From NCBI GenBank assembly GCA_029547025.1, contig JAKPQA010000085.1:6585-70584 (forward strand): DNA of 64,000 nucleotides, read 5' to 3'. The position numbers were made by a program, and so were the translations under genes. The DNA is from Armatimonadota bacterium. Its GTDB lineage: Bacteria > Armatimonadota > Zipacnadia > UBA1398 > JAKPQA01. Under the pieces are notes generated by a model that saw only the letters and a program-made list of their open reading frames with translations, was not told the DNA's origin and made no database searches. This document shows positions 10,711-51,843 of the stretch, one piece after another (position 1 is the stretch's first letter; every line of letters begins with the position of its first letter).

Positions 10711-10855
10711 TGCGGCTCCGTCCGCCGGGGCGGGCCAGCCGCACGGGGGGCCTGTCTCGCTCACTGCCCCGCCTCCGACGCCCCTGACGGCGTTCCGGCG
10801 GGCTCGGCATGCCGGGGGCCACGACCCCATCAGTGTTCATAGGGAGGCCGGATCG

Positions 10856-15847: not shown

Positions 15848-16386
15848 TGGCGTACCGACGCGAGGTTCTGGACACACCCGACTGGTGGCGAGAGCTTGAC
15901 GAGTACATCAACGACCAGCGCGAGAAGAACCGAGGCCACGTACAGAGCGCCCTGATCCCGGTTCTGCACCACGTGCAGGACCGGTATGGGTTCATCCCCG
16001 ACAAAGCGATCAACCACGTGGCCCAGGCGCTGGGTGTACCCACCTCATACGTGTGTGGGGTGGCCAGCTTCTATTCCTACTTCTCGCTGACGCCCAAGGG
16101 GTCATTCACCGTCGCCGTCTGTCTGGGTACCGCTTGCTACGTTCAGGGCAGCCAGGCGGTGGTGGATGAGTTCAGCCGCCGTCTGGGGATCCGGCCGGGT
16201 GAGACCACCGCGGACGGCCTCTTCACCCTGGTCGAGGCCCGTTGTCTGGGCGCGTGTGGCCAAGCGCCGGTTGTGATGGTGAACGATGAGGTCCATGCCG
16301 CCGTCACGCCCGAGCAGGTGCCGAACATCATCGCGCACTACACGGCTCTCGCCCCACGGGAGCCCGCGTCTTCGAACATGGCCTGA
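15847..16386 (+). CDS. hydC: NuoE-like thioredoxin-fold [2Fe-2S] subunit of hydrogenase (HydC-type)
   Basis: The ATGA overlap with the hydA stop indicates translational coupling. NuoE motifs CLGTACYVQG and CLGACGQAPV are present. Confidence 0.8.
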   Translation: MAYRREVLDTPDWWRELDEYINDQREKNRGHVQSALIPVLHHVQDRYGFIPDKAINHVAQALGVPTSYVCGVASFYSYFSLTPKGSFTVAVCLGTACYVQGSQAVVDEFSRRLGIRPGETTADGLFTLVEARCLGACGQAPVVMVNDEVHAAVTPEQVPNIIAHYTALAPREPASSNMA

Positions 16387-16402
16387 GGGAGCCCCGGACC
16401 GC

Positions 16403-18840: not shown

Positions 18841-18853
18841 GACGGATGGCGTG

Positions 18854-20746
<1,893 letters not shown>

Positions 20747-27300: not shown

Positions 27301-27656
27301 CATACGACGGCCCGGCGCACCGCATCGGCTTCGCTCCCATCTGGCAGCCGGAGGACCACTCATCGTTCTTCACGGCAGCGGAGGGGTGGGGCGTGTACCG
27401 TCAGCGTCGCATGCCCGGGTCGCTCCGCGCAGTGCTGGACGTGCGCTTCGGCCGGGTGGCCGTCCGCGAGCTGACACTAGCGCTGCCCGAGGGCGTGAAC
27501 TGCAGCGGAGGCCGGGTTGCGATGGGCGGGAGCGAGGTTCCCGCGACGATTGCGGGCGGTGGCCGTGGCGTGCAAGTCCGTATCGGCAAGGACCGACTGG
27601 TCACCGCAGGTCAGGAGCTGGTGGTGGAACTGGCGTTCGAGGCGCCAGACGGGTAG
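24312..27656 (+). CDS. secreted LamG/ConA-like domain fused to GH116-like (GBA2-type beta-glucosidase/glucosylceramidase) catalytic region
   Basis: There is a signal peptide. The N-terminal ~230 aa is a Laminin_G_3-like module (ELFFRPL...GVWHHVALTHG...LDEVALYSRAL). A GBA2_N-like block (YRGDHLEAIRFCVGGIGAGTIQMDG) and a DUF608-like (alpha/alpha)6 region (GNCTHVWHYAQAH) follow. Confidence 0.55.
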   Translation: MRPELLLTVALTALLLAVVAGRAAGGDYGGAVRRTDGLVAYWPFDGGLEDVVGGALGTPEGMVRFVPGVAGTSGIELDGRGFVTAPPILGADGPESTIELFFRPLPSPSPGNPCLVSIRDEKRARVSLHISADLRRLAVWNGGGAGWVDLAPEADLGEGVWHHVALTHGREGVRLYLDGVAWPGAVGPSGERGLPVQIGAPTATGDFEVFRGALDEVALYSRALTAEEVAAHVDAAGDEWAARRRRMAAVAAAFTEEQARRREAARAARRERVAAMLADPALLERGERRVYRGDHLEAIRFCVGGIGAGTIQMDGQARLAAWQIFNNHTEAELPHSFLAIAAGPAGARRVVRCLQTAPEGPFAAMERLGFQGEYPLAWYEFEDGELPVTVRLEAFSPFIPLRTQDSSIPCAVFRVGVANPGGQSVEVSLIAVQQNAVGYLGHGAVEGCDHVDYGGNRCTVLARDGATVLHMTSDKGPRRPGAGDMALTVLGPAGTGSADVGHLSGLHHALAQGQAPSAPGSAGPTPAGRTLDGAVASSFRLAPGESRTVTFVLAWHFPNAVHGASGSGWDHHGNQYANVWGNALEVAEYVRTELPRLSRETHEFHRAVYDSNLPHWLLDRITSQLAVLRSRTCYWAQDGYFGAWEGCGQSSGCCAGNCTHVWHYAQAHARLFPDLARRMREQSLSYQREDGSLPFRHPSESVAADGELGEILGVWREHLCAADESWLSQAWPRTRAAMEHAIRTWDPDEDGVLAGYQWNTLDCAVGGSTSWLGSLYLAALAASERMAALQGDPQRAERYRAIRNRGAVTQDATLFNGEYYIQLPDPEPRNDYVDGCAIDQLLGEWWATQVGLPTAYPDDHARRALSALIEHNFRPTLAGVTQSPRKFVADEDAGLQMIQWPKGDRPSPCILYGDEIMTGFEYAAAATMVQKGMLREGLMVAKAVSDRYDGRLREGLTPGDTASWGYSGNPFGDDECGKYYGRAMSVWSLLLACQGFSYDGPAHRIGFAPIWQPEDHSSFFTAAEGWGVYRQRRMPGSLRAVLDVRFGRVAVRELTLALPEGVNCSGGRVAMGGSEVPATIAGGGRGVQVRIGKDRLVTAGQELVVELAFEAPDG

Positions 27657-32130: not shown

Positions 32131-33162
32131 GTGCTTGCCGCCGTTCTCGAGGACTTCGGCCGCCTCGAGTTGAGGGAAGTGCCCGCGCCGGAGCCGGAGC
32201 CCGGCGAGGTCGTGGTCCGGATCCACTCATGCGGCTTCTGTGCGACCGACTACAAGGCCATTCGAGGACTCCGCCGCAATGTGACCTTCCCCTTCATCCC
32301 TGGACACGAACCTGCGGGCGTGGTCTCGGCGGTGGGGACGGGAGTGACGGGGTTCGCGGAGGGCGACGAGGTCATCATCATGCCCTCGGGCTACTGTGGC
32401 GTGTGCTCGCAGTGCCGGGTGGGGCGCACACACTACTGCGAGCGGTGCTTCACGACGGGGGGCGATGGCCCCGACGATGTGCGTCCGGGTGCGTTCGCGG
32501 AGTACATGAAGACCAGCGCCACCTGCTTGTTCCGGAAACCCGCTGGTGTCCCGTTCGACACGGCGGCCCTGACGGAACCACTCTCGGGGGCGTGGAAGGG
32601 GATGATCCAGTACAGCGAGATGACCGTTGGTGACGACGTCGTCGTCATCGGCGTGGGCGGCATCGGCCTCCTGTGCCTGATGGTCGCCCGAGCAGCGGGC
32701 GCGGGCCGTCTGATCGCCATCGACCCCAGCGCGTATGCCCGCACCAATGCCCTCGCCCTGGGTGCGACGCACGCGGTGGATCCTTCGGCCGGTGATGCCA
32801 GGGAGCAGGTACACGGGATTCTGCCCGAGGGGCCAGACCTGGTGGTGGAAGCGGCGGGCCCGATTGAGGCCGTGCGACTTATGGTTGACCTGCGGCGGCG
32901 CGGCACGCGCTGGAACGTCTTTGGGATCACCACCCACGAGTCGTTCGAGCTCGATGGAGGCCTCACCCATTTCCTCGAGGGGCGCATGGATGCCAGTTTC
33001 GGTACCACGCCCCTGGCGATGCAGAAGGCCATCCGGCTCATGGAGACGGGCCTGGTGGATCCCGGCAACATCATCTCGCACCGTTTCCCCCTCTCGGCCA
33101 TCCACGACGCCGTCGACACCATGGGCCAGCCCGAGCGGAACAAGGTGATCATCAATCCATGA
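32131..33162 (+). CDS. zinc-dependent alcohol/polyol dehydrogenase (MDR family)
   Basis: A GTG start is preceded by AAGGGGG. Catalytic Zn ligands (CGFCATD...GHE) and the structural Zn motif CGVCSQCRVGRTHYC are present, plus a GxGxxG-like motif VIGVGGIG. Confidence 0.75.
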   Translation: MLAAVLEDFGRLELREVPAPEPEPGEVVVRIHSCGFCATDYKAIRGLRRNVTFPFIPGHEPAGVVSAVGTGVTGFAEGDEVIIMPSGYCGVCSQCRVGRTHYCERCFTTGGDGPDDVRPGAFAEYMKTSATCLFRKPAGVPFDTAALTEPLSGAWKGMIQYSEMTVGDDVVVIGVGGIGLLCLMVARAAGAGRLIAIDPSAYARTNALALGATHAVDPSAGDAREQVHGILPEGPDLVVEAAGPIEAVRLMVDLRRRGTRWNVFGITTHESFELDGGLTHFLEGRMDASFGTTPLAMQKAIRLMETGLVDPGNIISHRFPLSAIHDAVDTMGQPERNKVIINP

Positions 33163-34151
33163 GGGCCATCGTGAACACGGGGCCGGGCACACTCGACTGG
33201 CTCGAGTGGCCCGACCCAACATGCGGACCCGGGCAGGTCAGGATCCGAGTTCACGCCTGCGGTATCTGCGCCACCGACCTCGAGATGATCCGTGGCTGGG
33301 AGCGTACCGGCTACCCTTCGATCCCGGGTCACGAGTGGTCGGGGGTGATCGACCAGGTGGGCAACGGCGTCGATCCTCAGCTGGTCGGACGGCCGTGTGT
33401 GGCGGAGAACGTGTTGGCGGACGGTGGCGAGGTCGGCTTCGAGCATCCGGGCGGCTATGCCGAGTACCTTGTGACCGAGGCGGCCAATACGCAGGTGCTA
33501 CCCGAGACGTTCGACGCCGGCTCTGCGGCCCTCATCGAGCCGTTGGCCGTGTGCGTCCGCGCCATGCGACGCGCCCGGTGCATGCCTCTGCGGCCAGACG
33601 GGCCCGCGGAGCTCCCCCCTCGGTGCCTGGTACTGGGCGATGGCCCGATCGGCCTGCTGACGGTGATGCTGCTGCGGCGATGTGGGACCCCGGACATCAC
33701 GATGGTGGGCGGACGCCCGGCACGGCTGAATCTGGCCCGGGAGTTCGGCGCTGCCGACACCCTGAACTACCACGAGCTGCATGGCGAACTGAAGGAGGCA
33801 CTGGGTCGGGACTGGCCGATGGTGGTCGAGGCCTCGGGCTCCGCCAGTTCGATCGAGGCAGCGCTGCTCGTGACCCGTTTGGGCGGGAGGGTGCTCATGG
33901 TCGGCGACTACGGTGACGCCCGCGCCGCCTTCCGCTGGAATCGGTTCATCCACGGCGAACTCGAGCTGATCGGCAGCAACGCCAGTGCTGGCGCCTGGCC
34001 CGAGGCGGTCCGGCTCGCCGTCGATGAGGGGTTGCCACTGGGCCGCCTGATCTCCGCCCGCGTCGCGGCGGCGCGTTTCGCAGACGCCATCGGCATGGCC
34101 GAGGCCGACCGCGCGTGCGTCAAGGTCATTCTCGACTGGACGGCAGCCTGA
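33159..34151 (+). CDS. zinc-dependent alcohol/polyol dehydrogenase (MDR family), second tandem copy
   Basis: ATGA start/stop overlap with the previous gene. CGICATD...GHE motifs and an LGDGPIGLL nucleotide-binding motif are present. It lacks the structural-Zn Cys cluster. Confidence 0.75.
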   Translation: MRAIVNTGPGTLDWLEWPDPTCGPGQVRIRVHACGICATDLEMIRGWERTGYPSIPGHEWSGVIDQVGNGVDPQLVGRPCVAENVLADGGEVGFEHPGGYAEYLVTEAANTQVLPETFDAGSAALIEPLAVCVRAMRRARCMPLRPDGPAELPPRCLVLGDGPIGLLTVMLLRRCGTPDITMVGGRPARLNLAREFGAADTLNYHELHGELKEALGRDWPMVVEASGSASSIEAALLVTRLGGRVLMVGDYGDARAAFRWNRFIHGELELIGSNASAGAWPEAVRLAVDEGLPLGRLISARVAAARFADAIGMAEADRACVKVILDWTAA

Positions 34152-34226
34152 GGCTCGCCCCCATGCGTGGAGGTGTCTGGCCGTACCGGCGCTCACGGGC
34201 CAAGCATTCGCGCGGCAGGGACTGGT

Positions 34227-34272
34227 CGGCGGGTTCACCAGCCGCCCCGGGCCCGGCGGGTTCATCAGCCGC
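34227..34272. repeat. direct repeat CGGCGGGTTCAYCAGCCGC x2 in convergent intergenic region
   Basis: The two 19-20 nt copies (34227-34246 and 34253-34272) differ at one position. A related copy sits at 39351-39369. Confidence 0.45.
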
Positions 34273-34292
34273 TGCGCCTCTGGGCGCCACCG

Positions 34293-35681
34293 TCAGTCGC
34301 GCCGAACCAAGCGCAACGCGATGTCCTCCTCGTACGCGGGAGAGGATAGCGCCAACTCGCCACCCGGGTGGTCCAGCTCCGGTCCCCGGATAGTCTCCCC
34401 GGTTCTGGGATTGACCCACTCGGCCACATAGCGCCCTGTGGGGGCCTCCAGGCGAATGCCCACCTGGGTGCCGCCCTCGACGTACACCGCGAAGGCCCGG
34501 CCTGGCTCAACGAGGGCGCGGCACGAGACGCCCCCGGTGCTCGAGCGGACCGTGTCAGTCGACGGGGCCATCCGCACGAAGTCGAAGCTCTCGATGAAGC
34601 GCTTGAGGACCCCCATCTGGTGACGGAATGCCCGCCCGCCCCCGCCCGGCTGCCCCTCGGGCAGCGGGAAGGTCCCGTCCTCATGCTGGGCGGTGAAGGA
34701 GTAGTCCAGGTGGTCGAACACCGCCCCACCGGCCATAAGGAAGTGCCAAGCCTCGGCGCGGTATGGCCGATCGGCGGTGCCCCGGAAACCGGTCTCGTCG
34801 TCAGCGATGACGCGTCCCAGATGATAGTTCCGCGTCACAGCGTCCGGCGGCGCCGCGTAGTGGAAGTTCAGGATGGAGATGGCGGGGTGCGGTGTGTCGA
34901 CGAGGGCAGATCCGTTCGCGATGTTCTGGGCGATCAGGTGCCGATGAGGGCGCGCGGTTTCGGCCTCCCAGATCACATCGGCGATGCGGTGCTGCCACGG
35001 AAGGGTCACGCCTCCGAAATAGGGCTCGTTGCAGATCTCATAGTAGACGTTGTCGAAACCGGCCAGCTCATGGACGATGCGGCGCACCATGGCTTCCTGA
35101 ACGCGCTGGAGACCCGAGTCGCGCAGGGTGTAGACCTCCTCACGTGCCATGTCCCCGACACCGTTGACGTTGTTCGTCGCCTTCAGGGGACTCAGATCCC
35201 ACTGCTCGTCACCGTAGAACGGACAGAACAACACCAGTTCGACCACAATGCCCCGCTCACCGGCTTGGCGGCAGAAGTCAGTCAGGCGAGAGAAGTAGGC
35301 CGCGTCCCATGCCTCCAGGTCGAACTTGTTGCCGCCCCCCGCATAGCCCGGCTGGTCGCTGCGAGCCCAGGGAGTGATCAGGCGGCCTTCGGCCGGGGCC
35401 AGCGTGTTCTCGCGGATGCCGAAAGCCCCGTGATGCTCCATGTAGGCCCCCGAGAACGTGCGGGTCAGGTTGAGCCCCTCGCGACGCAGCTCGTCCAGAT
35501 AGGGCACGTAATCGAAGTCGAGGTTCAGCACCGCGCCGTAGTGTTCACCTGACGTGACCAACACGGAGGGCTCGCCCCGGAAGAGGAAGTAATGTGGGTT
35601 GTCCGGATGGAGACAGATGGGCGCGCTCAAGGCCGAGACGGGGCCCAGAGCGGCCAGGAGGACTGCGGGAGCAGTGGCCAT
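34293..35681 (-). CDS. secreted GH5-like (clan GH-A) glycoside hydrolase
   Basis: Signal peptide MATAPAVLLAALGPVSALSA. The catalytic acid/base block YYEICNEPYFGG is the NEP motif of GH5/clan A. The start was set at Met26. Confidence 0.6.
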   Translation of the reverse strand: MATAPAVLLAALGPVSALSAPICLHPDNPHYFLFRGEPSVLVTSGEHYGAVLNLDFDYVPYLDELRREGLNLTRTFSGAYMEHHGAFGIRENTLAPAEGRLITPWARSDQPGYAGGGNKFDLEAWDAAYFSRLTDFCRQAGERGIVVELVLFCPFYGDEQWDLSPLKATNNVNGVGDMAREEVYTLRDSGLQRVQEAMVRRIVHELAGFDNVYYEICNEPYFGGVTLPWQHRIADVIWEAETARPHRHLIAQNIANGSALVDTPHPAISILNFHYAAPPDAVTRNYHLGRVIADDETGFRGTADRPYRAEAWHFLMAGGAVFDHLDYSFTAQHEDGTFPLPEGQPGGGGRAFRHQMGVLKRFIESFDFVRMAPSTDTVRSSTGGVSCRALVEPGRAFAVYVEGGTQVGIRLEAPTGRYVAEWVNPRTGETIRGPELDHPGGELALSSPAYEEDIALRLVRRD

Positions 35682-35806
35682 CGCGTGGTCCCTCCGTACC
35701 GGGTGGTGCGGCATCGGCCGCTGGCCAGGTGGCTGGGCTCGTTCGCCGCGGGCCACTGGACACCTGCGCGTTGCTGCCGAGCCAGACCGCGGATGAGGTG
35801 CACGCC

Positions 35807-37240
35807 ATGTGCGGAGAAGGCCATAGGCTGGCCGGCGGCGCGATGCTCACTGATCGCGAGCTCGAGGGTGTTCTCGACTTGGCTCTCGATGTGATCTCGC
35901 GGATCGGCCTGGAGATCCATGACCATGAACTCCGCGAGGTGGCGGCACGCGGGCTCGGGGTGCCCAACGGCCCTCGGCTCACGGCCACCCGCAGTCAGGC
36001 AGAAGCGTACCTGGCCTCGTGGCGCCGGCGTGTGGACATGAGGAAGTCGACCGAGGCGACCGGAACCGCCGGCGAAGCGCCACGCCTCGGGCTGGGCGTG
36101 ATGCCCTACAGCCACACGTATCTGGACCCCCGTACGAACCGCCACGTCCCGCTCACCGGGGTGCGACTCATCGAGGCCACCCGCTTCCTGTCCACGTTTC
36201 CCGGCGACCAGCTTACCTCGTCGGTACCTGGGCACCCCGTCGATGTACCGGCTGCGTTGCAGTCGCTCTTCCAGTACAAGACGGGAGCCCAGTACAACCC
36301 TCAGGGCGGCGGGTACGGCTGGCTCGGTCCCCCAAGAGTTGCCGAGTATGTGCTGCGCATGGCCGAGGAGGTGGGGCACCCGATCACCGCCACAGTAGTC
36401 TACGTCGACTCCCCGCTGCGACTCGGAGGCCACGAGCTTCGCACGGCGTATGAGCTGCGGCACCGTTTCGCCGAGGTGCATGTCGGGAACATGGGGAGCT
36501 GTGGCGCGACGCTCCCGCTCCACCCGCGAACGGCCCTCGCCCTCTCGTGGGCAGAAGCCATACTCGCGGGCCTCTGCGTCGAGTTCCTGACCGGATTGCC
36601 GACCGACTGGGGAGGAACGCTCGAGCCATTTGACCTTCGTGCGCAGACGATCCCCTTCGGCGCGCCGGAGCAGGCCCTGTACTACCAGATGGGACGGGAA
36701 GCCTCAGCTTGGCTGACCGGCAATAGGCCGCACGCCGGCCATGCGCCCCTGCTCACCATGGCGAAAGTGCCGGGCGCGCAGGCGGCGCTCGAGAAGGGCA
36801 TGTCGGCCGCTCTTGGTGTCGCCCGGGGCTGCACCTCACTGGGCGCCGCGGGTAGTCTGAGTGCGGACGAGGTATTCAGTCCGGCTCAGGTGGTCCTCGA
36901 TCTGGAGCTTCGCGACTGGCTGGAGCGGTTCGCGGCCGGCATTTGCCGGCCTGAGGACGAGCCCGCGGACCCGCTCAAGGCCATCCGCGAGGCATTGTCC
37001 GGCCGAGGGTTCGCCGCGGCTGACGCGACACTCGACAGCTATGCGGCGCTATCGTGGTTCCCCCGACACCTGCGCCGTGAGATGCTGGACCGGTGGCGGG
37101 ACCTCGGTTCGCCTTCGGCAGAGGAAACGGCGCGGGAGGAAGCCATCGAGCGGATCGAAGGGGCCCAATGGACACTCCCGGAGCCGCTGTTTGGGGCGCT
37201 CGAAGCCATCTATGCCGAGGCGGCCGCGTGTCTCGGGTAA
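35807..37240 (+). CDS. MttB-superfamily (trimethylamine-methyltransferase-like) protein without in-frame amber codon
   Basis: The N-terminal pattern LTDRELEGVLDLALDVISRIGLEIHDHELREVAARGLGV is typical of MttB/MtgB-family starts. The ORF is uninterrupted, so pyrrolysine is not used. An alternative start lies at ATG 35843. Confidence 0.5.
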   Translation: MCGEGHRLAGGAMLTDRELEGVLDLALDVISRIGLEIHDHELREVAARGLGVPNGPRLTATRSQAEAYLASWRRRVDMRKSTEATGTAGEAPRLGLGVMPYSHTYLDPRTNRHVPLTGVRLIEATRFLSTFPGDQLTSSVPGHPVDVPAALQSLFQYKTGAQYNPQGGGYGWLGPPRVAEYVLRMAEEVGHPITATVVYVDSPLRLGGHELRTAYELRHRFAEVHVGNMGSCGATLPLHPRTALALSWAEAILAGLCVEFLTGLPTDWGGTLEPFDLRAQTIPFGAPEQALYYQMGREASAWLTGNRPHAGHAPLLTMAKVPGAQAALEKGMSAALGVARGCTSLGAAGSLSADEVFSPAQVVLDLELRDWLERFAAGICRPEDEPADPLKAIREALSGRGFAAADATLDSYAALSWFPRHLRREMLDRWRDLGSPSAEETAREEAIERIEGAQWTLPEPLFGALEAIYAEAAACLG

Positions 37241-37409
37241 GGCGGCGCCGCCGTCCCCAAGGCGGAACCTGTCTGCGCAGAGGAGAGCGGCGCCGGGTCC
37301 CCGAATGCCTTGATGGGGTGAACGTCTCGACCCCGATGGTCACCCGCCGTGCCGCTGATCCCTCCCGGGCGCGGGTGGCGAGGCTTCCGGGCTCAGGAGG
37401 TTGGCGAGC

Positions 37410-38081
37410 ATGCGTCTCAGCAAGGGAGCCATAGTGGCTCTCATCGTCGGGCTGGTCGTCGTGGTTCTCGTGACCTACTTCACTGCCGAGATTCAGAACT
37501 TCGTGGCACTGAAGGCGTGGAGCAAAGGGGCGACGCGGGCAGTAGCGGCTCGGGTCGTCGACGCGATCCAGAACCGGGATGCGGCAGCCATCCAGGAGTT
37601 CTGCGGAGGCCCCGTGAAGCCGACGGAGGCCGACGGCAAACTGGTGGCGCTCGGTATCACCGGTGGCATGGCGCCCCCGCCCGTCCCGGTCGAGAACCTG
37701 ACACCGGTCGAGGGCGTCGACAAGGCACGGATCGCGTTCCAGATTCGTCCGCCCCACGGCACCGCCACAGTTACGATGGCGGGACCGAACGGCAGCCAGA
37801 TCGTGCTGACCCTCAAGCCCGAGAAGGGGAAGTGGAATCTCGTGATGGTCTCCTCCTCGGTCCGGGCCCAGAATGCAGCCGCGGGGAAGACGGTGGGGCC
37901 CGGCGCGCAGAAGGGTGCCGGGAAGGCGCCGGGCGGTTCCGGAGGCCCCGGAGGCACGAGCAAGGGAGCCGGAGCCAAAGGACTGGGATCCAAGGGCCCC
38001 GGGGCTATCGGCTCTCCCGTGGGCGGCGGGAGCCCCAAAGGCGTACCCCGTGCGGCGCCCACCGAGGCGCCCGCGACATAG
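37410..38081 (+). CDS. small type-II membrane-anchored protein, paralog 1 of tandem triplet (conserved core + long G/P/K/S-rich tail)
   Basis: ATG 37410 is preceded by AGGAGG at -9. MRLSKGA plus a single TM helix, then the conserved core (EIQNFVALKAWS...GMAPPPVPVE...KGKWNLV). The C-terminal ~70 aa is low-complexity. Confidence 0.55.
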   Translation: MRLSKGAIVALIVGLVVVVLVTYFTAEIQNFVALKAWSKGATRAVAARVVDAIQNRDAAAIQEFCGGPVKPTEADGKLVALGITGGMAPPPVPVENLTPVEGVDKARIAFQIRPPHGTATVTMAGPNGSQIVLTLKPEKGKWNLVMVSSSVRAQNAAAGKTVGPGAQKGAGKAPGGSGGPGGTSKGAGAKGLGSKGPGAIGSPVGGGSPKGVPRAAPTEAPAT

Positions 38082-38142
38082 CTAGCTGGGGGCCGAACAG
38101 TCCATGTGAGGTTCTCCATTCCCATACCCGAAGGGTGATCCC

Positions 38143-38685
38143 ATGCGCATCAGCAAGGGCGCCGTCGCGGTTCTTGTGATCGGCATCGTGGCGGTGATTC
38201 TGGGCACGTACTTCGCCGGTGAGATCCAGAACTTCGTGGCCCTGCGCGCATGGAGCACCGGGGCCGCACGCGCCGCCGCCGGCCGACTGGTTGAGGCGAT
38301 GAAGAACCGGGACCTCGAGACGGTCAAGGGCTTGTGCGGTCCGGATGTCAAAGTGGGGGAAGCCGAAGGCCAGCTTACGGGTATCGGACAGGCTGGACCC
38401 ATGGCGCCGCCACCGATTCCCATCGACCTGCTGCTCCCGAGTGAGAGTGTGGATCAGGCCACGATATCCTTCGACATTCCGCCGCCCCGGGGCACGGCAC
38501 TGGTCACCATCGCTGGGCCCGAGGGACGGACGATCAAGTACCACCTGAAGCCCACCAAGGGCAAGTGGCTGCTCGTGGGCGTCAGCTCTGCGATGACCGG
38601 CACCGCGGGGGGCGGAGCCAGCGCGGCTTCTACCGGCCCCAAGTCGTCGCCAAACAGCAAGAGCAACCCGCGGCCCGGATCGTGA
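38143..38685 (+). CDS. small type-II membrane-anchored protein, paralog 2 of tandem triplet
   Basis: It starts MRISKGA followed by a TM helix. By eye it is about two-thirds identical to paralog 1 over the first ~45 aa, and it conserves C, GPMAPPPIPI and KGKWLLVGV. Confidence 0.55.
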   Translation: MRISKGAVAVLVIGIVAVILGTYFAGEIQNFVALRAWSTGAARAAAGRLVEAMKNRDLETVKGLCGPDVKVGEAEGQLTGIGQAGPMAPPPIPIDLLLPSESVDQATISFDIPPPRGTALVTIAGPEGRTIKYHLKPTKGKWLLVGVSSAMTGTAGGGASAASTGPKSSPNSKSNPRPGS

Positions 38686-38716
38686 CACCGTCCGCGCGCA
38701 ACGGGAGATGAGTCGG

Positions 38717-39349
38717 ATGCGGGTCAGCAAAGGGGCCGTCGTCGCATTGGCGGTCGGCCTCGTGGTTGTCGTCCTTGTTACCTACTTCGCCGACGAGGTT
38801 CGCAACTTCTTCTCCCTGGGTGCGTGGAGCACGAGCCGGGCTCGAGCGGCGACCGCTCGGGTCATCGAGGTGATTCGGGATCGCGACTTCGCAGCCGCGC
38901 AGGCCCTCTGCGGGCGCCAGGTCAGAGCCGCTGAGACCGACGGCAAGCTCAGCGGGTTGGGCATGGCCGGTCCCATGACTCCACCGCCGATCCCCATTGA
39001 GCTGCTCACCCCAACTGCGAACGCAGATCAGGCGAAGATCACGTTCCAGCTCGCGGCCATGATGGGCACGGCCACGGCAGAGCTCCCGGGCCCCGACGGC
39101 TCCAGGATCCGCTTGGTGCTCAAGCGTCCCCAGGGGAAGTGGCTTCTGGTCGGTGTAACGACCACGGGGACCTACCTCCCGGCGCCGGGCAAGGGGGGCG
39201 AGGGGAGCAGGTCGCCCAAGAGCCCGACTGCCGAGAGCGGCCGGCCGAAGGGACCAGGCGAGGCTGGGCCACCGGTAGACGCGACGCACACGCCAGAGGC
39301 CGCGCCGTCGAAGGCGAAGGGCCTGCCGGGAGCCGGACCCGCGACGTAG
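38717..39349 (+). CDS. small type-II membrane-anchored protein, paralog 3 of tandem triplet
   Basis: It starts MRVSKGA followed by a TM helix and the same conserved core (GPMTPPPIPIE, KGKWLLVGV). The start was preferred at 38717 over 38708 because of RBS spacing and agreement with the paralogs. Confidence 0.5.
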   Translation: MRVSKGAVVALAVGLVVVVLVTYFADEVRNFFSLGAWSTSRARAATARVIEVIRDRDFAAAQALCGRQVRAAETDGKLSGLGMAGPMTPPPIPIELLTPTANADQAKITFQLAAMMGTATAELPGPDGSRIRLVLKRPQGKWLLVGVTTTGTYLPAPGKGGEGSRSPKSPTAESGRPKGPGEAGPPVDATHTPEAAPSKAKGLPGAGPAT

Positions 39350-39382: not shown

Positions 39383-41965
39383 TCACCGTGTGCGGAGATG
39401 CACGATTCTCACGTCGCCGGACGGCACGGACAGGCGCACGCGGGTTGAGTGCGCATCAGTCCGAACGTCGAGCGCGGTGCCCGCGACCCACTCGTCGGCG
39501 CCCACACAGGGCTCGTCGAGCTCCACGAGTACGGCGGCCGTCTCCTCTTCCCGGATCCACGGCATTCCACGGGGCTGTTTGTAGGCCCCCCGGTTGTTGA
39601 GCAGGCCAACGACCCAGCCGTCGGCAGCGCGGTTCACCATCCACTGCACGCCGGGGCTGACCCTGACGGGGACAAGTCCACTGGTCACGTGGCGGAGCAG
39701 GTGGTCCATGAGGCCGAGTGGCTCCTGGTTGCTGTCCAGGAGATAGTGCGGGGTCGTAAGCACCACGTGCCCGGCTCCCACGCGGTGATCGGACACCAGG
39801 ACATCGTTCGAGCCGGGGACGGTAACCACGGGGCGGGCGCCGTGCATCTCGGCAACGGCATAATCGAACTCCGCCGAGCGCATGGTGGAGCCGTCGAGAT
39901 GGCAGATGGCCTCAGTGGCGCGACGCACCTCACCGGTCAGGGCGGCCCCAGTCAGCAAGGTCGGGAGGGAGGAGCCCACCTGCCGGGCGTTGGCAACCAG
40001 AGTGCCTCCGGCACGCACGTAGTCGTCGAGCCGCTGGGCCAACGCGCCGTCGATGCGCACCTCGCCGACCAGGATCGCCACGGGGTAGTTGCCGAGTGTG
40101 TGGCATGTGGCGGTCGTCAAGCCGTCGAAGATGTCCCCGTACGGGGTCTCGGTGAGGTACCCTCGCTCGAGCTTCTCCAGGCCGAGCCCTGCGTCCTCCG
40201 GCTCCCAACCAGTTCCGGGTTCGTGCCAAGGGTACACCAGGTTGAAGAAGTGATCCATCATGCGATCGCCGTCGGACAACGGTAGGCGTCCCCAGATTCG
40301 GTGAGGCGCGCAGCCCCGCGGCGACCACCCATGCGCGAAGTCGAGGATCACGGCGACAGGGGTGTAGGGTGTGCCCCGGTCCTTCTCGCGGTCCAGGCGG
40401 AACAGGCGCTCGGCCATCTCGCCCACGGGCGACAAGCGCCACTTCTCCGGCTGACCGGACGTCTCGAAGCCGGCCAGTTGGCGGAGGGCGCTCTCGCGCA
40501 TCACCAGCAACCGGTAGTTCTCGAACCACAACATGTTCGCGCCCGCCAGCCAGGTCGCGTAGCAGAAGCGCTTGTGGAGCATGGGCGAGTGCCCGCTGAA
40601 CATGGCCGCATCGGCTTCGAGGACCTCGGGGACGTAGGAGTAGTCCGTCACGGTGCCGGCGAACCATGAAGAGAGATCGATGCCCCACGGCTTGCCAGAC
40701 TCCCTTCCCGCGCCGCGCGTGAAGGCGATTTGGAGGTTCGTGCAGGGGATGTTCTCGCCGATCTCTGCCACGACCGAGGAGGCACCCCATGCGAACGCGT
40801 GGTGGTGGAAGAAGCGGTAGCCGTCCAGAGCCATAACGGCGCGCTTCACCGGTGTCGTGTCGGCCAGCTCCTCGTACCTCTGTCTCAGGCGTTCGAGTCC
40901 CTCATAGCGGTCGCGGATTGGGCCACCGAACCAGTCGCGCATATCCATGCGTATAAGCCCGTCGCCCCACTCGTTGAGTGGCCCACCGGGCCCGAGCTTC
41001 AGGCCGTAGAACCCAAGAAAGCGATCACGGGCGCTGGCCACGATACGCCGCTGCACACGCTGGGTCTCCGGGTCAAGCGACGGCTCAAGGGTGAACGGTC
41101 TGCGTTCGCCTGCCATGAGGCCCCGGTCGTTGGGCGCGAACAGCCAGGCCGCGTCAGCGAAGACCGGGTGGTCGGCCATACCCCACTCGTGCCATTCATC
41201 AGGACGGTACTCGGCCAGATGCCAGAACGTCCGGCCCGCGATCTCAATCGGCCGCCACGCGTCGGCGATTCTGAAGGCCGTGTCGCGCCCGCCGAGCGGG
41301 CGGCACGCGGGCTCGAGTTCAGCCTCGCGGGCACGGATGCTGATGTTGTCCAGCATGAAGCCCCAGCGGCTGTCCGGTCCCACCGCCGCCGCGTCGAAAC
41401 GGATCCTCCCGCGCACCATGGGGTCGTGTGGGAATGCGGCCCGCCAGCAGATGCGGCCCGTGTCGCGTTCGGCAACGATGATCACCGCCGTGGTGTCCTG
41501 GCAGAAGACGGTGACGTGGTACCACCGGTCATCCTCGGGGGCGAGGCGTGCCCCAGAGCGCCGGCAGTCCCACCGCCCGCCGTAGTGGCTCCATGCGCCA
41601 CCGGAGTACTCGACGTACCAGGCGGCGCCGTCCCACTCCTGCTCCGGCGCACTCTGCGTCACCTGGCACGATACGCAGTTGGCATAGCCTCCCAGGCGCT
41701 CCGCCGCGGGCTGCAGGTAGTCGAACTCGACCACATGGAACGGAGGCACCTCGGCCAGTGAGGTGAGGGTGCATCCACCGCCTATCCCGAGTAGGTGCAG
41801 GACGCCATTCTCGACGCGAACGAACGAGCCCGGCGTCTCGCTGGCGTGCACGTCCCACTTGCTGGCATCGACACCGGAGCCCCCGAAGTCGTCCTCGAGG
41901 ATGGACCGAGCGCCCAATGGGGCACACAGGGTGACCAGGGCCACGACAAGGAAACCAGTGAGCAT
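39383..41965 (-). CDS. secreted ConA/LamG-like (DUF1080-type) domain protein with large uncharacterised C-terminal region (860 aa)
   Basis: The start was set at Met20, giving the signal peptide MLTGFLVVALVTLCAPLGA. The N-terminal block LEDDFGGSGVDASKWDVH...VENGVLHL is typical of ConA-like lectin/glucanase modules. Confidence 0.5.
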   Translation of the reverse strand: MLTGFLVVALVTLCAPLGARSILEDDFGGSGVDASKWDVHASETPGSFVRVENGVLHLLGIGGGCTLTSLAEVPPFHVVEFDYLQPAAERLGGYANCVSCQVTQSAPEQEWDGAAWYVEYSGGAWSHYGGRWDCRRSGARLAPEDDRWYHVTVFCQDTTAVIIVAERDTGRICWRAAFPHDPMVRGRIRFDAAAVGPDSRWGFMLDNISIRAREAELEPACRPLGGRDTAFRIADAWRPIEIAGRTFWHLAEYRPDEWHEWGMADHPVFADAAWLFAPNDRGLMAGERRPFTLEPSLDPETQRVQRRIVASARDRFLGFYGLKLGPGGPLNEWGDGLIRMDMRDWFGGPIRDRYEGLERLRQRYEELADTTPVKRAVMALDGYRFFHHHAFAWGASSVVAEIGENIPCTNLQIAFTRGAGRESGKPWGIDLSSWFAGTVTDYSYVPEVLEADAAMFSGHSPMLHKRFCYATWLAGANMLWFENYRLLVMRESALRQLAGFETSGQPEKWRLSPVGEMAERLFRLDREKDRGTPYTPVAVILDFAHGWSPRGCAPHRIWGRLPLSDGDRMMDHFFNLVYPWHEPGTGWEPEDAGLGLEKLERGYLTETPYGDIFDGLTTATCHTLGNYPVAILVGEVRIDGALAQRLDDYVRAGGTLVANARQVGSSLPTLLTGAALTGEVRRATEAICHLDGSTMRSAEFDYAVAEMHGARPVVTVPGSNDVLVSDHRVGAGHVVLTTPHYLLDSNQEPLGLMDHLLRHVTSGLVPVRVSPGVQWMVNRAADGWVVGLLNNRGAYKQPRGMPWIREEETAAVLVELDEPCVGADEWVAGTALDVRTDAHSTRVRLSVPSGDVRIVHLRTR

Positions 41966-41996
41966 GATGTTGACCACTGATGGTACCTCGGTCCGC

Positions 41997-43793
41997 TCAG
42001 GCGGTGAGAAACTGCACTGCAACGCGGTGACGCCCGATGGGCACCGGGAAGTAGGCCCAGTTGGACGCGCATTCGGTCACGCGTTTCGGGATCACATCCG
42101 CGGATTCGACGAAGCAACGCGCGCCGACGGATTGGCCCAGACACACCCGGATGACGCACCCCGATGGGTCGGGACAGTCGACGACAAACTCGAGCAGGTT
42201 CCCGTCGAAGAGGGCGTCCTCGACCGTAGTCGCGTCGCGGTTCATCCACCACTCGTTGAGTCGATCGCTGCCCATGTATGCCACCGTGGCCCCGAGCTCG
42301 TCGACATAGCGAAGAAGCTCATCGATGGCCTCGCGGCACCCGGGAGAACCGGCGATGTAGACCGGGTGGTAGAACAGGCACATCGTGAGACGACCGGCGA
42401 GGGCCAGATCGACCGCACGACGTACCGCGGCGGGATCGCACTGCTCGTCCTGGTACCCGACTTCGTACCCCGTGATGGCCTCCTGGACGAAGGGCAGGCG
42501 CCGGTTACCGTGGCGCCAGTCGTCCCACACGTGCCGGGGGAAAGCAGTACCGAAAGAGAATCCGGTCACGTTGGTGGGGTTCATCCCGACGGGCTCGGGA
42601 CCGAACCACGAGTTGTCGCCGGTCCCACCCGTGGCCGCGATCCACCGGGCGGGATCGGCCCACCCGCACCATCGGCACCAGTGGTTCACCGAGCACCGCG
42701 AGCTTCGGCCGAATGCCCGCATGAACTGGTCTGCTTGGGCCCGCACATCGTGTTCGGTGAACCCGCACGGATGGCTGAACCCGTCGACAAAGTTGTAGTG
42801 CAGCGCGAGCTCGTGGCCGTTGGCCTCGATGTGAGCGGCCTCCTGGGCGCTCACCGCGAACCCCTCACCGACGGGCATCAGGTTGATGTGATAGGGCAGG
42901 CCCCGGCTCCGCATGAAGTCCGACGCGGGCACCTGATTGCCGGCCTCGCCCTCATCGTCGCCGCCGAAGTAGAACACGGCGTCCGCCACCCGCCCTCCGG
43001 CGGGTGGGAGGGCGTCAACCATGGGGATTGGCCTGAGGCCCAGGATGACCCGGAGGAGTGATTGGAGCACGTCGGTGTACGGCACGGCCACATCGTTGTC
43101 GCCGACAATGCGGGCGTCCATCGCTCGCAGGTAGCCATCGCCATCATAGTCGCGGTCGATCGGTCTTCCCTGGTGGATCGCCCACATCGTCTGGGCGACA
43201 TCGAAGGCAAAATAGCAGGCGTAGCCCGCCCCGACACGCCGGAGCGTAACCCCGGCGTACGGGGTCTCCACAGCGCGCCTGCCACAGGTTGGCGCATCGG
43301 GCGATGGCTCCATCACCGTTGCGAGAGTCTCGACGCCCTCATCGTCAGCAACCACCAGCCGCACGGGGGAAACCACGAGGAGCGGCTGGTCCTCGAACCC
43401 GGCGGGATGCACATCGGAGGCCAAGTTGCAGTCGGTGAGCCGAAGGTAGGCCGCGATGCCAAAGTCGCCTTCGGGCTGCTTCAGGCAGCCCTCCACGCGG
43501 ATGCCGAACAGCTCTTCGAGCCCAACCGTCGCAAAGCCAATGAGTATCCCCCCGGCCCGGACCCATGCTTCCGCGGCTGACGGGACCGTGGGCGAGACGC
43601 CCGGATGGGAGCCGGCCACGACCACAGCATACCCGGCCAGACGGATCAGGTCCCGCGCATCGGCCGGGGCCAGACGTTCGGGCGTGATACCGAGACGCCG
43701 CAGGATCTCCTCCGTGTACACCGGCCAGTAGTTGCGGCCGGCTGCGTTCGCATCGCTGTGCGCCTGCGCGTCGTACACCCACGCGACTCGCAT
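41997..43793 (-). CDS. hypothetical protein with GATase1-like (beta-galactosidase-trimerisation-like) N-domain and polysaccharide-deacetylase-like region
   Basis: The start was set at Met59 (MRVAWVYD...) to avoid a 117-nt overlap with the upstream gene. Assignment is weak and by pattern only (FYFGGDDEGE, HELALHYNF). Confidence 0.35.
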   Translation of the reverse strand: MRVAWVYDAQAHSDANAAGRNYWPVYTEEILRRLGITPERLAPADARDLIRLAGYAVVVAGSHPGVSPTVPSAAEAWVRAGGILIGFATVGLEELFGIRVEGCLKQPEGDFGIAAYLRLTDCNLASDVHPAGFEDQPLLVVSPVRLVVADDEGVETLATVMEPSPDAPTCGRRAVETPYAGVTLRRVGAGYACYFAFDVAQTMWAIHQGRPIDRDYDGDGYLRAMDARIVGDNDVAVPYTDVLQSLLRVILGLRPIPMVDALPPAGGRVADAVFYFGGDDEGEAGNQVPASDFMRSRGLPYHINLMPVGEGFAVSAQEAAHIEANGHELALHYNFVDGFSHPCGFTEHDVRAQADQFMRAFGRSSRCSVNHWCRWCGWADPARWIAATGGTGDNSWFGPEPVGMNPTNVTGFSFGTAFPRHVWDDWRHGNRRLPFVQEAITGYEVGYQDEQCDPAAVRRAVDLALAGRLTMCLFYHPVYIAGSPGCREAIDELLRYVDELGATVAYMGSDRLNEWWMNRDATTVEDALFDGNLLEFVVDCPDPSGCVIRVCLGQSVGARCFVESADVIPKRVTECASNWAYFPVPIGRHRVAVQFLTA

Positions 43794-43849
43794 CGGCCTC
43801 CTGGGGGAGCCAACCAAGGGGCTCACTGCCTCTCGCAACTGGGCTGAAC

Positions 43850-45007
43850 CTATGCGAGCCGCTCGACGGCCCGGCGAAGCCGATCGGCCTGAGCGGCGAC
43901 GGCGTCGTCGGGCTGGAACGGGTAGCCCAGTATGATGTTCGGGAACAGGGCTTCCACCTTGGGGCACAACCCATCCGGGTACTGGTTGCCCGTGCCCTCG
44001 TAGAGTGGGCAGTCCAGCGGGCAGCCCCGCCCGGCGCCCAGCCGTTCGGCGATGAGCGGGTGACGGTAGGCCGGCATGTTCGTATAGCCCATTCCGATGC
44101 CGACCTGCTCCTCCTCGAGCACCCGGGCGAAGTCGTCACGGGGAAGGCCTATCCGCTCGCCGTGGAAGGTAGCGCCCCAGAGGTGGAAACTGTGCTCGGC
44201 CTCGGCCGGCCCTCGCTGGAGGTCGATGAACTCGCAGTCGGCCACCGCAGCATCCAGCATGGCGGCGGCGCGGCGGAGGCCCTCGATGTAGCCCGGCAAG
44301 CGCTCGAGCTGGGCGATGCCGATGGCGGCCACGGGTTCGGACATCCGGTAGTTGTAGTGCATCCCATATGCCACGGACATGAACGTCGGCGCCCCCGCAT
44401 GCAGGTTCAGCTTCCCCGCGAGCTCATCGTTGTCCGTCAGCGCCATACCGCCATCACCCAGACCCATCTGCTTGCTGGCTTGGAAGCTGAAGGACCCGAT
44501 GTCCCCCCACGTGCCGACGCACTTGCCCTTGTACCGTGTCAGCAGAGCATGGGCACAGTCCTCGATGACCACGATGCCATGCCGGTGTGCCACCTCGACG
44601 ATGCGGTCAATCTCGGCAGGTAGACCGCAGACGTGGGTCACGATGAGTGCCTTGGTCCGCTCGGTGATGCGCGCCTCGATGGCGTCGGGATCCATGTTCC
44701 ACGTCACCGGGTTGACGTCCACGAAGACGGGAATGGCGTTCGCATACATCGTGGCCATGGCGCCGAACACGCACACGGGATCGCAGATGACCTCGTCCCC
44801 CGCCCCGGCTCCAGCCGAGATGACGGAGGCATGCAGCACCGACATGGCACAGTTCATGGCCACACCGTGCTTCGCGCCATGGGCCTCAGCGAAAGCCTTC
44901 TGAAAGCGCGGGGTAAGCTGGCCGCCATCGAGGATGGAGAGATGCCCCGACTGCAGCACCTCGCGAACCAGACCGAGGTCTCGGTCATCGAACACTCGAG
45001 TGGGCAT
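43850..45007 (-). CDS. DegT/DnrJ/EryC1/StrS-family PLP-dependent aminotransferase
   Basis: The family N-terminus MPTRVFDDRDLGLVREVLQSGHLS is present, along with the PLP-lysine region SFSFQASKQMGLGDGG. The start was set at the internal Met184 of the computed ORF. Confidence 0.8.
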   Translation of the reverse strand: MPTRVFDDRDLGLVREVLQSGHLSILDGGQLTPRFQKAFAEAHGAKHGVAMNCAMSVLHASVISAGAGAGDEVICDPVCVFGAMATMYANAIPVFVDVNPVTWNMDPDAIEARITERTKALIVTHVCGLPAEIDRIVEVAHRHGIVVIEDCAHALLTRYKGKCVGTWGDIGSFSFQASKQMGLGDGGMALTDNDELAGKLNLHAGAPTFMSVAYGMHYNYRMSEPVAAIGIAQLERLPGYIEGLRRAAAMLDAAVADCEFIDLQRGPAEAEHSFHLWGATFHGERIGLPRDDFARVLEEEQVGIGMGYTNMPAYRHPLIAERLGAGRGCPLDCPLYEGTGNQYPDGLCPKVEALFPNIILGYPFQPDDAVAAQADRLRRAVERLA

Positions 45008-51707: not shown

Positions 51708-51843
51708 CAATGGCCCAGCCTCCTCCAGTGTCCGCGTTGGGGTCTGGTTCGCGGGTGCCCCACGGAGGCCCTTCGCGCCTCCGCCCACGCAGGTTGGCGC
51801 TGCCGCGTCCCGGAACAGGCAGATCTGCGGAGGTGAGCTCCCG

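Follow-up and report, generated by a model that had tools for sequence, protein, structure and literature searches.

Tandem triplication of bitopic membrane proteins with a predicted NTF2-like outer domain in Armatimonadota

Three consecutive genes on the + strand of a 64,000-nucleotide stretch of DNA from an Armatimonadota bacterium (the whole stretch is called the window here) encode small membrane-anchored proteins that resemble each other and end in low-complexity tails of different length. The locus raises the question of what these proteins are, how old the array is and what three versions of one protein might do at the cell envelope of a phylum that has barely been cultured and whose envelope is almost unstudied.

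An old triplet from an unnamed Armatimonadota family

The three open reading frames were present as given in the initial annotation, with copy 1 at 37410..38081 (223 aa, N-terminus MRLSK), copy 2 at 38143..38685 (180 aa) and copy 3 at 38717..39349 (210 aa). Their coding nature was supported by a GC3 of 0.81–0.82, similar to that of the rest of the genes in the window, and by dN/dS values far below 1 in the called frame. The ATG of copy 1 at 37410 is preceded 9 nt upstream by AGGAGG (37395–37400), and the ATG of copy 3 at 38717 is preceded at the same distance by GGGAG (38703–38707). This Shine-Dalgarno spacing supports the start codons annotated earlier for copies 1 and 3. The alternative starts TTG 37401 of copy 1 and ATG 38708 of copy 3 abut the Shine-Dalgarno sequences and were not preferred; ATG 38708, which is in frame, is less likely.

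The three proteins were found to be 51–57% identical in pairwise, gapless comparison over residues 1–150. When the part beyond the transmembrane (TM) helix was compared separately (residues 36–150), BLASTP returned 49–55% identity with E values of 9e-38 to 5e-42; thus, the likeness is not limited to the TM helix. The earlier estimate that the cores are about two-thirds identical is too high for any pair and is close to the mean three-way column identity of 64%. Similarly, the core is conserved as described, but the sequence blocks reported as invariant are not all so, since TYFTAE occurs in copy 1 and QGKW in copy 3. Gene conversion between the copies was checked with sliding windows and the longest identical runs, and no tract was detected; all 90-nt windows showed higher identity between orthologs than between paralogs, and paralogs shared no identical run longer than 14 nt. 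Gene order, synteny and 1:1 orthology of the triplet were preserved across four contigs, the triplet being conserved in loci L001, L017 and L018, and the tree showed the topology ((c3,c3),((c2,c2),(c1,c1))) with the triplet clade nested within a wider family. These results together showed that the locus arose by lineage-specific tandem triplication of one gene of a small unnamed family, and that the triplication predates the divergence of at least four sampled genomes, in agreement with the initial view that the array is not recent.

The size and range of this family were examined by an exhaustive HMM search of 1.84 billion (1.84e9) representatives, which gave 76 matches at E<1e-3. Three of these (P0027, P0048 and P0062) are large repeat proteins in which a 40-residue stretch was matched many times, and they were removed as spurious; on reading, P0027 and P0062 proved to be an adhesin-like protein of eukaryote type and a repeat protein, and P0048 has a like match pattern. 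The remaining 73 are nearly all full-length matches to proteins of 150–240 aa, all named members come from Armatimonadota, Armatimonadia or Armatimonadetes metagenome-assembled genomes (MAGs), and the family is frequently multi-copy within a genome. A word-indexed homology search was too insensitive for this purpose, as copy 2 retrieved four near-identical proteins and missed its paralogs, and a 55-sequence profile retrieved seven. The locus search with the A2 alignment returned nothing from genome contigs and only the source organism (L011) from metagenome contigs, and that with the A6 alignment returned two Armatimonadota MAGs.

A set of 55 members was used for the Pfam and NCBIfam profile tests, charge bias and conservation. 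No significant match was obtained in Pfam, NCBIfam or the PDB sequences, and the proteins had no matches in PADLOC or PHROGs. The window copies gave only Tim44 in Pfam (E 0.046, 14 bits against a cut-off of 29.6). Among the 55 members, weak matches were scattered over the NTF2-clan families DUF4440, Lumazine_bd_2, Tim44 and AtzH-like, the best being DUF4440 (four members, E 0.005) and Lumazine_bd_2 (one member, E 0.0013), and the gathering threshold was not reached for DUF4440, SnoaL-like, Tim44, Lumazine_bd_2 or DUF4878. The PDB search with 3- and 55-sequence profiles ranked bS20 and tankyrase helices best and gave weak ketosteroid isomerase/NTF2 matches at E > 0.01. Thus, these proteins form a sequence family without a name that has so far been seen only in Armatimonadota, for which a profile and a name are now possible.

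Membrane topology and predicted fold

Each protein contains one strongly hydrophobic 19-mer within residues 6–25 (Kyte-Doolittle 2.6–2.8), and all other segments score 1.0 or less. The TM helix spans approximately residues 6–24 in copy 1 (37425–37481) and 7–25 in copy 2 (38161–38217) and copy 3 (38735–38791). Across the 55 members the mean number of Lys and Arg residues was 3.4 on the N-terminal side of the helix and 1.6 on the C-terminal side, and the positive-inside rule was obeyed by 45 of them. Hydropathy and charge bias thus bear out the single N-terminal helix and type-II topology recognised at first sight, and each product is predicted to be bitopic, N-in/C-out, with a basic N-terminus of 5–6 residues and an uncleaved signal-anchor helix. 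A cleavable Sec signal peptide was considered and rejected on inspection, because no small-x-small site follows the hydrophobic stretch of 19–20 residues and most homologues have 15–55 hydrophilic residues before the helix. The helix is followed by a conserved amphipathic juxtamembrane helix (E27, I28, L34 and the invariant W37), which in copy 1 leads with Trp37 into the outer domain. Cultured Armatimonadota stain Gram-negative and are diderm, so in this organism the outer domain would probably face the periplasm and not the cell surface.

The conserved extracytoplasmic core was confirmed as an outer domain of ~115 residues, which structure modelling places in the NTF2-like alpha+beta cone fold. 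It spans approximately residues 38–150 in copy 1 (37521–37859) and positions 38254–38592 and 38828–39166 in copies 2 and 3, respectively. In the predicted domain, 5–6 antiparallel strands form a strongly curved beta-sheet into which the N-terminal helices pack, with a beta-hairpin and a Pro-rich loop where many NTF2 folds carry a third helix. In SnoaL/DUF4440-type members of the superfamily, common hallmarks are an Asp that caps helix 2 (the “gD” motif) and a last strand with G-x-W-x-hydrophobic. Both are present in this family, with D57 conserved in 95%, G140 in 80% and W142 in 93% of the 55 members. The residues conserved family-wide are Trp, Gly, Pro, hydrophobics and the helix-capping Asp57, which are probably structural; mapping of conservation in the 55 members onto the secondary structure revealed no conserved polar residue in the sheet. 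The earlier statement that the core matches no named family therefore stands at the level of sequence and not at that of fold, and the placement in a well-characterised group reaches the superfamily level only, where the fold implies no single function. A single TM helix with an NTF2-like domain is a familiar architecture and the fold is very common; the locus gives no sign of a new mechanism or of an answer to a long-standing question.

The closest named relative is the C-terminal model of Rv0361 (NF051431, Rv0361_Cterm), which was matched by 37 of the 55 members at E<=0.1 (best E 1.2e-5), all below threshold. Copies 1 and 2 of the window scored ~18 bits (E 2e-3) against a cut-off of 37 bits and copy 3 had no match; such widespread scores below the cut-off indicate remote homology and not membership. 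The alignment pairs our residues 6–70 with model positions 6–68 (the first helices), and for the window copies it covers the N-terminal half only. In both families an extracytoplasmic domain follows one N-terminal TM helix. Rv0361, for which a ...DDQWKI... peptide and membrane and surface localisation were reported (PMC2891697), carries in this peptide an end strand that resembles our GKWxLV. However, it is an actinobacterial protein of ~30 kDa, whereas ours are Armatimonadota proteins of 150–240 aa with a signature of E27, L34, W37 and the GPMxPPxP loop, and the Rv0361 family is equally uncharacterised in function.

The soluble NTF2-like/SnoaL/DUF4440-type proteins (3fsd, 3fka, 3cnx and the CaMKII hub domain) are 8–20% identical to ours with no threshold reached, and many of them are enzymes whose cone contains a conserved Asp, His or Tyr, whereas ours are membrane-anchored and have no conserved polar sheet residue. 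The accessory NTF2 domains of Pgp2, Csd6 and Bd1075 are fused to an LD-carboxypeptidase/transpeptidase and are not TM-anchored on their own; no similarity to them was found in sequence and no cell-wall genes lie beside the triplet. An RsgI9-type anti-sigma factor with an NTF2-like sensor was also considered and set aside, as the window copies have only 5–6 residues before the TM helix and no anti-sigma domain, and the N-terminal extensions read in homologues are Pro/Ala/Glu/Lys-rich and almost all without Cys or His.

Selection on cores and tails and the proposed role

The tails follow the outer domain at 37860–38078 in copy 1 (73 aa, Gly/Lys/Ala/Pro, pI 11.3, net +8), 38593–38682 in copy 2 (30 aa, Ser/Gly/Ala/Pro) and 39167–39346 in copy 3 (60 aa, Pro/Gly/Lys/Ala). 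Those of copies 1 and 3 end in PAT and their ends align (KGPG..G.PV ... PAT). When orthologs from the four contigs were compared, dN/dS of the core was 0.10–0.32 across the three copies, and all three cores are maintained by purifying selection. In all six pairs but the closest, which gave 0.42, the copy 1 tail was at 0.10–0.16, as compared with 0.10–0.14 for its core, and its orthologs are 82–88% identical at the amino-acid level. The tails of copies 2 and 3 were at or near neutral (0.5–1.2), copy 3 showing 0.10–0.14 in the core and 0.5–1.1 in the tail. The claim that the tails have diverged freely is therefore correct for copies 2 and 3 but not for copy 1. A low-complexity Lys/Gly/Pro/Ala tail that is as constrained as a folded domain is the most unusual detail of this locus, and the purifying selection on it points to a specific interaction element and not a spacer.

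These findings are probably best explained by triplicated bitopic NTF2-like envelope proteins that are non-catalytic and whose tails have sub-functionalised. A non-catalytic binding or scaffold/assembly role at the cell envelope appears most likely, given that the sheet lacks a conserved polar residue. As in VirB8, TraM, DotI and the Rv0361 family, the domain would be anchored on the outside of the cytoplasmic membrane, and the paralogs may have sub-functionalised mainly through their C-terminal tails. The probable target of the constrained polycationic copy 1 tail is either a partner protein or an anionic component of the envelope, with peptidoglycan, lipid headgroups and outer-membrane lipid as candidates. 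The tail of copy 2 would be dispensable, and that of copy 3 evolves fast but retains its composition and C-terminal PAT. As NTF2-like domains commonly dimerise or trimerise, it may be speculated that the three copies act jointly as a hetero-oligomer. Its obligate form, for example a 1:1:1 trimer by analogy with the TraM/TcpC pyramids, docked by the copy 1 tail and the copy 1/3 PAT to peptidoglycan, the outer membrane or a PDZ-type partner, is improbable; if true, it would give Armatimonadota an envelope tether or assembly platform of their own, without a counterpart in model bacteria. The copy 1 tail and the stable three-gene arrangement offer the best experimental handles.

The gene neighbours vary between family loci, and guilt by association thus yields nothing consistent. 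In three loci a protein of ~790 aa encoded downstream of a family gene reads like an outer-membrane protein. Its only match was LptD_N at E 0.12, with none in the PDB and NCBIfam, and its homologues in L014–L016 have no family gene within the fetched flanks; its link to LptD is a weak lead. An ECF sigma operon with its own candidate anti-sigma gene lies near a family gene only in L003 and L009/L010. An association with the family was rejected, as this adjacency is synteny of two related genomes and is absent elsewhere.

Other explanations were weighed against a non-catalytic binding or assembly role. The VirB8-like proteins (VirB8, DotI, CagV, TraM of pIP501 and TcpC) share with ours the bitopic N-in arrangement and outer NTF2-like domain, and TraM sets a precedent for an oligomerising, surface-exposed bitopic NTF2-like protein (PMC3548508). 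They are, however, encoded in T4SS/conjugation clusters, whereas neither the 64-kb window nor the called-gene tables of ten family loci contained genes for a T4SS, a pilus or a mobile element. Our family has no sequence-level match to them, it is chromosomal and syntenic and not mobile, VirB8 is not among the 25 commonest Pfam families for the 55 members at E<=1, and in the structure matches VirB8-like folds ranked no better than enzymes, CaMKII hubs and designed NTF2 proteins, the Z distribution being flat. It is thus very unlikely that the triplet nucleates assembly of a trans-envelope secretion or conjugation machine. Somewhat less doubtful, but still unlikely, is a role as periplasmic carriers or sensors of a lipid or hydrophobic ligand (MlaC-like), or as accessory factors of outer-membrane biogenesis, in which a lipid or glycolipid would sit in the NTF2 cone close to the inner membrane until it is passed on. 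The ~790-aa neighbour does not help this reading, as its LptD_N match is not significant and the triplet itself has no such neighbour, and no Mla or Lpt genes adjoin.

The initial annotation had suggested an array of surface proteins with variable tails that mediates adhesion or matrix binding or helps to evade phage and immunity. Such a role would fit a tandem set of paralogs in which the low-complexity tails are unequal in length and two of them near neutral, and it would fit the finding of the remote relative Rv0361 on the mycobacterial surface (PMC2891697). However, purifying selection acts on the cores, four contigs share the same copy number and gene order with stable 1:1 orthologs, neither gene conversion nor cassette shuffling was seen, and the copy 1 tail is strongly conserved. 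In addition, PADLOC and PHROGs returned no defence or phage families, the source organisms are environmental MAGs and not host-associated pathogens, and an anchor in the cytoplasmic membrane would leave the proteins unexposed in a diderm. The suggestion therefore found no support and is highly improbable. A type IV pilin-like or pseudopilin identity draws on the N-terminus, where MR[LIV]SKG|A[VI] and the ~20 hydrophobic residues after it look like a class III signal peptide and several homologues have [KR]G.S.G|A[VI] directly before the helix. As the earlier reading had held, this likeness is superficial: Glu at +5 is missing (position +5 counted from Gly6 is Leu or Val), only 62% of members retain Gly6, extensions at the N-terminus are up to 55 residues long, and N_methyl (PF07963) is absent from the 25 most frequent Pfam families of the 55 members. 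The globular part is predicted to be NTF2-like, its two helices being distinct from the TM helix, and not an alpha-beta roll on a continuous alpha-1 helix, and a pilin-like nature has next to no probability.

The leader of copy 1 and a probable operon

A non-coding leader at 37302..37409 (+ strand), which includes the AGGAGG of copy 1, precedes the triplet. The scans found no sigma-70 consensus in this leader and no promoter, and no terminator at the array end. An RNA structure in the leader was not supported, with a fold z-score of −0.79, three covarying pairs among four sequences and no Rfam match. The leader is 81–93% identical across the four syntenic contigs, whereas the 61 nt directly upstream are only 43–51% identical between the more distant pairs, and it is probably the promoter and 5′ UTR of copy 1. 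The intergenic gaps are 61 nt between copies 1 and 2 and 31 nt between copies 2 and 3, a spacing which suggests that the three genes form one operon.

The three genes and the age of the triplication

The ORF listing of the window contained the three plus-strand genes as the initial annotation had described them, namely copy 1 (37410–38081), copy 2 (38143–38685) and copy 3 (38717–39349), separated by 61 and 31 nt. The start codons assigned there were preferred over the starts of the longest ORFs (37401 and 38708) because each MR[LIV]SKGA start has a properly spaced Shine-Dalgarno-like element upstream, such as AGGAGG (37395–37400) located 9 nt 5′ of the ATG at 37410 in copy 1 and GGGAG (38703–38707) located 9 nt 5′ of the ATG at 38717 in copy 3. 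The GC content at third position in the triplet (0.81–0.82) matched other genes of the window, which is 65–72% GC, and the antisense and off-frame ORFs are typical shadow ORFs of GC-rich DNA. The triplet genes are functional.

The three copies aligned without gaps over residues 1–150 with pairwise identity of 51–57%. When the transmembrane (TM) helix was left out (residues 36–150), BLASTP among the copies gave 49–55% identity (E 9e-38 to 5e-42), showing that the similarity extends beyond the helix. An Armatimonadota MAG encodes a hypothetical protein with the exact sequence of copy 2, and the triplet recurred in the same order and with similar lengths in three more contigs (L001, L017 and L018), the orthologs being 223 aa for copy 1, 152–180 aa for copy 2 and 210–214 aa for copy 3. 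The long contigs L001 and L017 share an MttB-family gene upstream and a ~870-aa convergent gene downstream, and in L018 a cut 403-aa gene alone was visible upstream. In a neighbour-joining tree, where the triplet clade was sampled from two genomes (the window and L001), the copies formed one clade, ((c3,c3),((c2,c2),(c1,c1))), nested inside the wider family. The triplication therefore arose within this lineage yet predates the split of the sampled genomes. The dS between paralogs (~1.1–1.4) is near saturation, and the earlier view that the array is not recent is supported. Ortholog similarity exceeded paralog similarity in every 90-nt window and the longest identical run between paralogs was 14 nt; thus, there was no sign of recent gene conversion among the copies. 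These comparisons show that the tandem triplication is old and confined to this lineage.

The 108-nt non-coding leader before copy 1 (37302–37409) was 81–93% identical across the four contigs, whereas the 61 nt upstream of it were 43–51% identical between the more distant pairs. This contrast suggested a dedicated promoter and 5′ UTR apart from the upstream MttB-like gene, and the region 37302–37409 is probably such a conserved element. Consensus scans found neither a sigma-70 promoter at the leader nor a terminator at the array end. In the alignment fold, the Shine-Dalgarno region pairs with an upstream GACCCCG; a stable RNA structure in the leader was unsupported (fold z-score −0.79, three covarying pairs in four sequences and no Rfam match).

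Fold, family and membrane topology

The three proteins showed no significant match in Pfam, NCBIfam, PDB sequences, PADLOC or PHROGs. The AlphaFold2 models of copy 2 (residues 1–150) reached a pLDDT of 81.9 from six aligned sequences and of 92.1 (pTM 0.78) from 55, and their secondary structure was identical. They contain the TM helix (residues 5–23), a short juxtamembrane helix (25–34), two helices (40–54 and 58–64), a β-hairpin (69–83), a Pro-rich loop (84–106) and four further strands beyond this loop. Foldseek agreed with an NTF2-like fold, but weakly (E at least 3.5e-3); it found no close relative with a solved structure, and no NTF2 sub-group was prominent.

When 1.84 billion representatives were searched exhaustively with a profile, 76 proteins scored E < 1e-3 and 32 among them E < 1e-10; nearly all family matches were 150–240 aa long, covering the TM helix and the entire domain. 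Three repeat proteins of 1446–2140 aa (P0027, P0048 and P0062; E 1e-12 to 1e-5) were rejected as homologues; they matched through 5–11 repeated 40-residue stretches (…YSPPPVTIT… or …DGNKYTMTL..NGQWKLPG…), and multi-domain scoring inflates their scores. Wherever a member carried a source name, this was an Armatimonadota, Armatimonadia or Armatimonadetes MAG. The 55 aligned members all stayed below Pfam thresholds, the scattered weak matches being to NTF2-clan families. The NCBIfam model NF051431 ("Rv0361 family membrane protein") matched 37 of the 55 below its cut-off (best E 1.2e-5), and this consistency indicates a remote homology to the Rv0361 family. Rv0361, a mycobacterial protein with one TM segment, has been detected both in membrane fractions and at the cell surface (PMC2891697). 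The family itself is unnamed and apparently restricted to Armatimonadota. The locus had been called an undescribed element, which holds for the sequence family and not for its fold or for its architecture of a TM anchor with an NTF2-like domain, both of which are common.

Each copy has a single strongly hydrophobic 19-mer within residues 6–25 (Kyte-Doolittle 2.6–2.8) and none above 1.0 elsewhere. Among the 55 members, Lys plus Arg averaged 3.4 in the 15 residues N-side of the helix versus 1.6 in the 15 residues C-side, and 45 members held the positive-inside rule. Most homologues carry a Pro/Ala/Glu-rich N-terminal extension of 15–55 residues with KKK or RRG at its end; this extension has been lost in the window clade, whose proteins begin 5–6 residues before the helix. 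The helix is taken as an uncleaved signal anchor because the hydrophobic stretch is long, no small-x-small site follows it and conservation within the family is highest in the segment just past it. The triplet products are therefore bitopic N-in/C-out proteins with an extracytoplasmic NTF2-like domain. Cultured Armatimonadota stain Gram-negative and hence this outer domain would be periplasmic.

Conserved residues, tails and possible function

Family-wide conservation was limited to hydrophobic positions and to W37 (100%), D57 (95%), L34 and W142 (93% each), G128 (91%), P99 (89%), G76 (84%), A52 (82%), G140 (80%), E27 (64%), P90 (62%) and I28 (60%). D57 and G140-x-W142 are generic NTF2/SnoaL hallmarks, and the family-specific signature, [YF]24-x-x-E-I-x5-L-x-x-W37, is located at the membrane interface. 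Within the sheet, none of the residues conserved family-wide was His, Tyr, Asp, Glu, Arg or Lys, and an enzymatic role of the ketosteroid isomerase, SnoaL or scytalone dehydratase type is therefore unlikely.

In each copy the tail is basic, with Gly, Pro, Lys, Ser and Ala abundant. When dN/dS was compared in four genomes, the copy 1 tail (73 aa, pI 11.3, net +8) gave 0.10–0.16 (closest pair 0.42) and its core 0.10–0.14, with 82–88% amino acid identity of the tail between orthologs; the constraint on this tail equals that on its folded core. The copy 2 tail (30 aa) is missing in L001 and L017 and gave ~1.2 where present (core 0.13–0.32), and the copy 3 tail (60 aa), which has kept its composition, gave 0.5–1.1 (core 0.10–0.14). 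The free divergence of tails proposed earlier is thus compatible with copies 2 and 3 and contradicted by copy 1. The C-terminal tripeptide PAT is common to copies 1 and 3 (PST in L018), and similar Lys/Gly/Pro/Ala tails occur sporadically in the distant members P0013, P0029 and P0031. The picture suggested by these rates is sub-functionalisation after duplication, and neither free drift nor diversifying selection.

The outer domain is most likely a non-catalytic binding or scaffold module on the outer face of the cytoplasmic membrane, and the polycationic, constrained tail of copy 1 probably acts as a specific interaction element. Binding to the envelope has a precedent in the NTF2 domain of Pgp2, which binds peptidoglycan (PMC8038945). 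The three products may form hetero-oligomers, an analogy being offered by the trimeric TraM/TcpC (PMC3548508) and by further NTF2-like proteins that oligomerise. A VirB8-like component of a larger machine and a pilin-like subunit are both unlikely readings of these anchored proteins. Because the neighbours differ in almost every family locus, genomic context is uninformative on function. A variable adhesin array is likewise improbable, and the role in surface variation suggested in the initial annotation found no support.

One family clade has, directly downstream and on the strand of the family gene, a gene for a secreted ~790-aa protein with an N-terminal signal peptide (8722–11088 in L006, 8654–9586 in L003, where it is cut, and about 6560–8956 in L013). 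Its C-terminal part is long, Ser/Thr/Asn/Tyr-rich and ends in Phe, and its LptD_N match was faint and not significant (E 0.12). The protein reads like an outer-membrane β-barrel and could perhaps be a very divergent Armatimonadota LptD, an identity that sequence matches in Pfam, NCBIfam and PDB did not confirm. Its homologues at other loci have no family gene nearby, and a lipid carrier or Lpt accessory factor is an unlikely role for the triplet products.

Loci of the family and surroundings of the triplet

Multi-copy loci recur in the family, L002 having three family genes in 11 kb and L008 a tandem pair, and an ECF sigma operon was nearby in two related loci only (L003; L009/L010). Downstream of a family member, L002 (7120–8370, plus strand) encodes a 416-aa secreted protein whose sole Pfam match was a weak Porin_4 (E 0.0097) and whose C-terminal ~110 residues (…AFSNCLERGSFDLLESV…REGSAWRVRAVTW) resemble another NTF2/DUF4878-type domain.

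Convergent to the triplet, two minus-strand genes (39383–42022 and 41997–43967) with ORFs overlapping by 26 nt encode 879- and 656-aa proteins without a Pfam match at E ≤ 1e-3, the former with an N-terminal hydrophobic anchor or signal. Synteny holds for both in L001, at 86% and 83% identity, and in L017 as judged from gene size and position. The gene immediately upstream of the triplet (35804–37240, plus strand), kept at this position in L001 and L017, encodes a homologue of MttB-superfamily methyltransferases (PF06253, E 1.9e-20); its longest-ORF start is 35594, the Pfam match and orthologs favour a start near 35804, and the ORF has no in-frame stop such as a pyrrolysine UAG would be. When window 34151–35804 was compared with L001 4692–7527 and L017 158–2993, both contigs had a 472-aa FAD_oxidored gene flanked by the second alcohol dehydrogenase gene and a 462-aa minus-strand gene; the window, where 33159–34151 is directly followed by 34293–35756 (minus strand), has no room for it, a gene-content difference inside otherwise conserved synteny.

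Farther away (14060–15847, 16286–18421, 18851–20746 and 20858–22420), genes for a HydA-type [FeFe]-hydrogenase large subunit, which carries 2Fe-2S/4Fe-4S domains at its N-terminus, and for a NuoF-like flavoprotein subunit are interspersed with a Cache/HAMP histidine kinase gene, and a response-regulator/PAS hybrid kinase gene comes after them; the arrangement looks like a bifurcating-type hydrogenase cluster in which signalling genes are embedded. The window showed no mobile-element genes. Large glycoside hydrolases are abundant (1034–3556 on the minus strand, 10676–13909, 24312–27656 and 51589–54006), namely a GH38 α-mannosidase, a GH42-like enzyme, and a GH116 and a GH32 enzyme that both carry a Laminin_G_3 domain, a content that fits a polysaccharide-degrading Armatimonadota chromosome.
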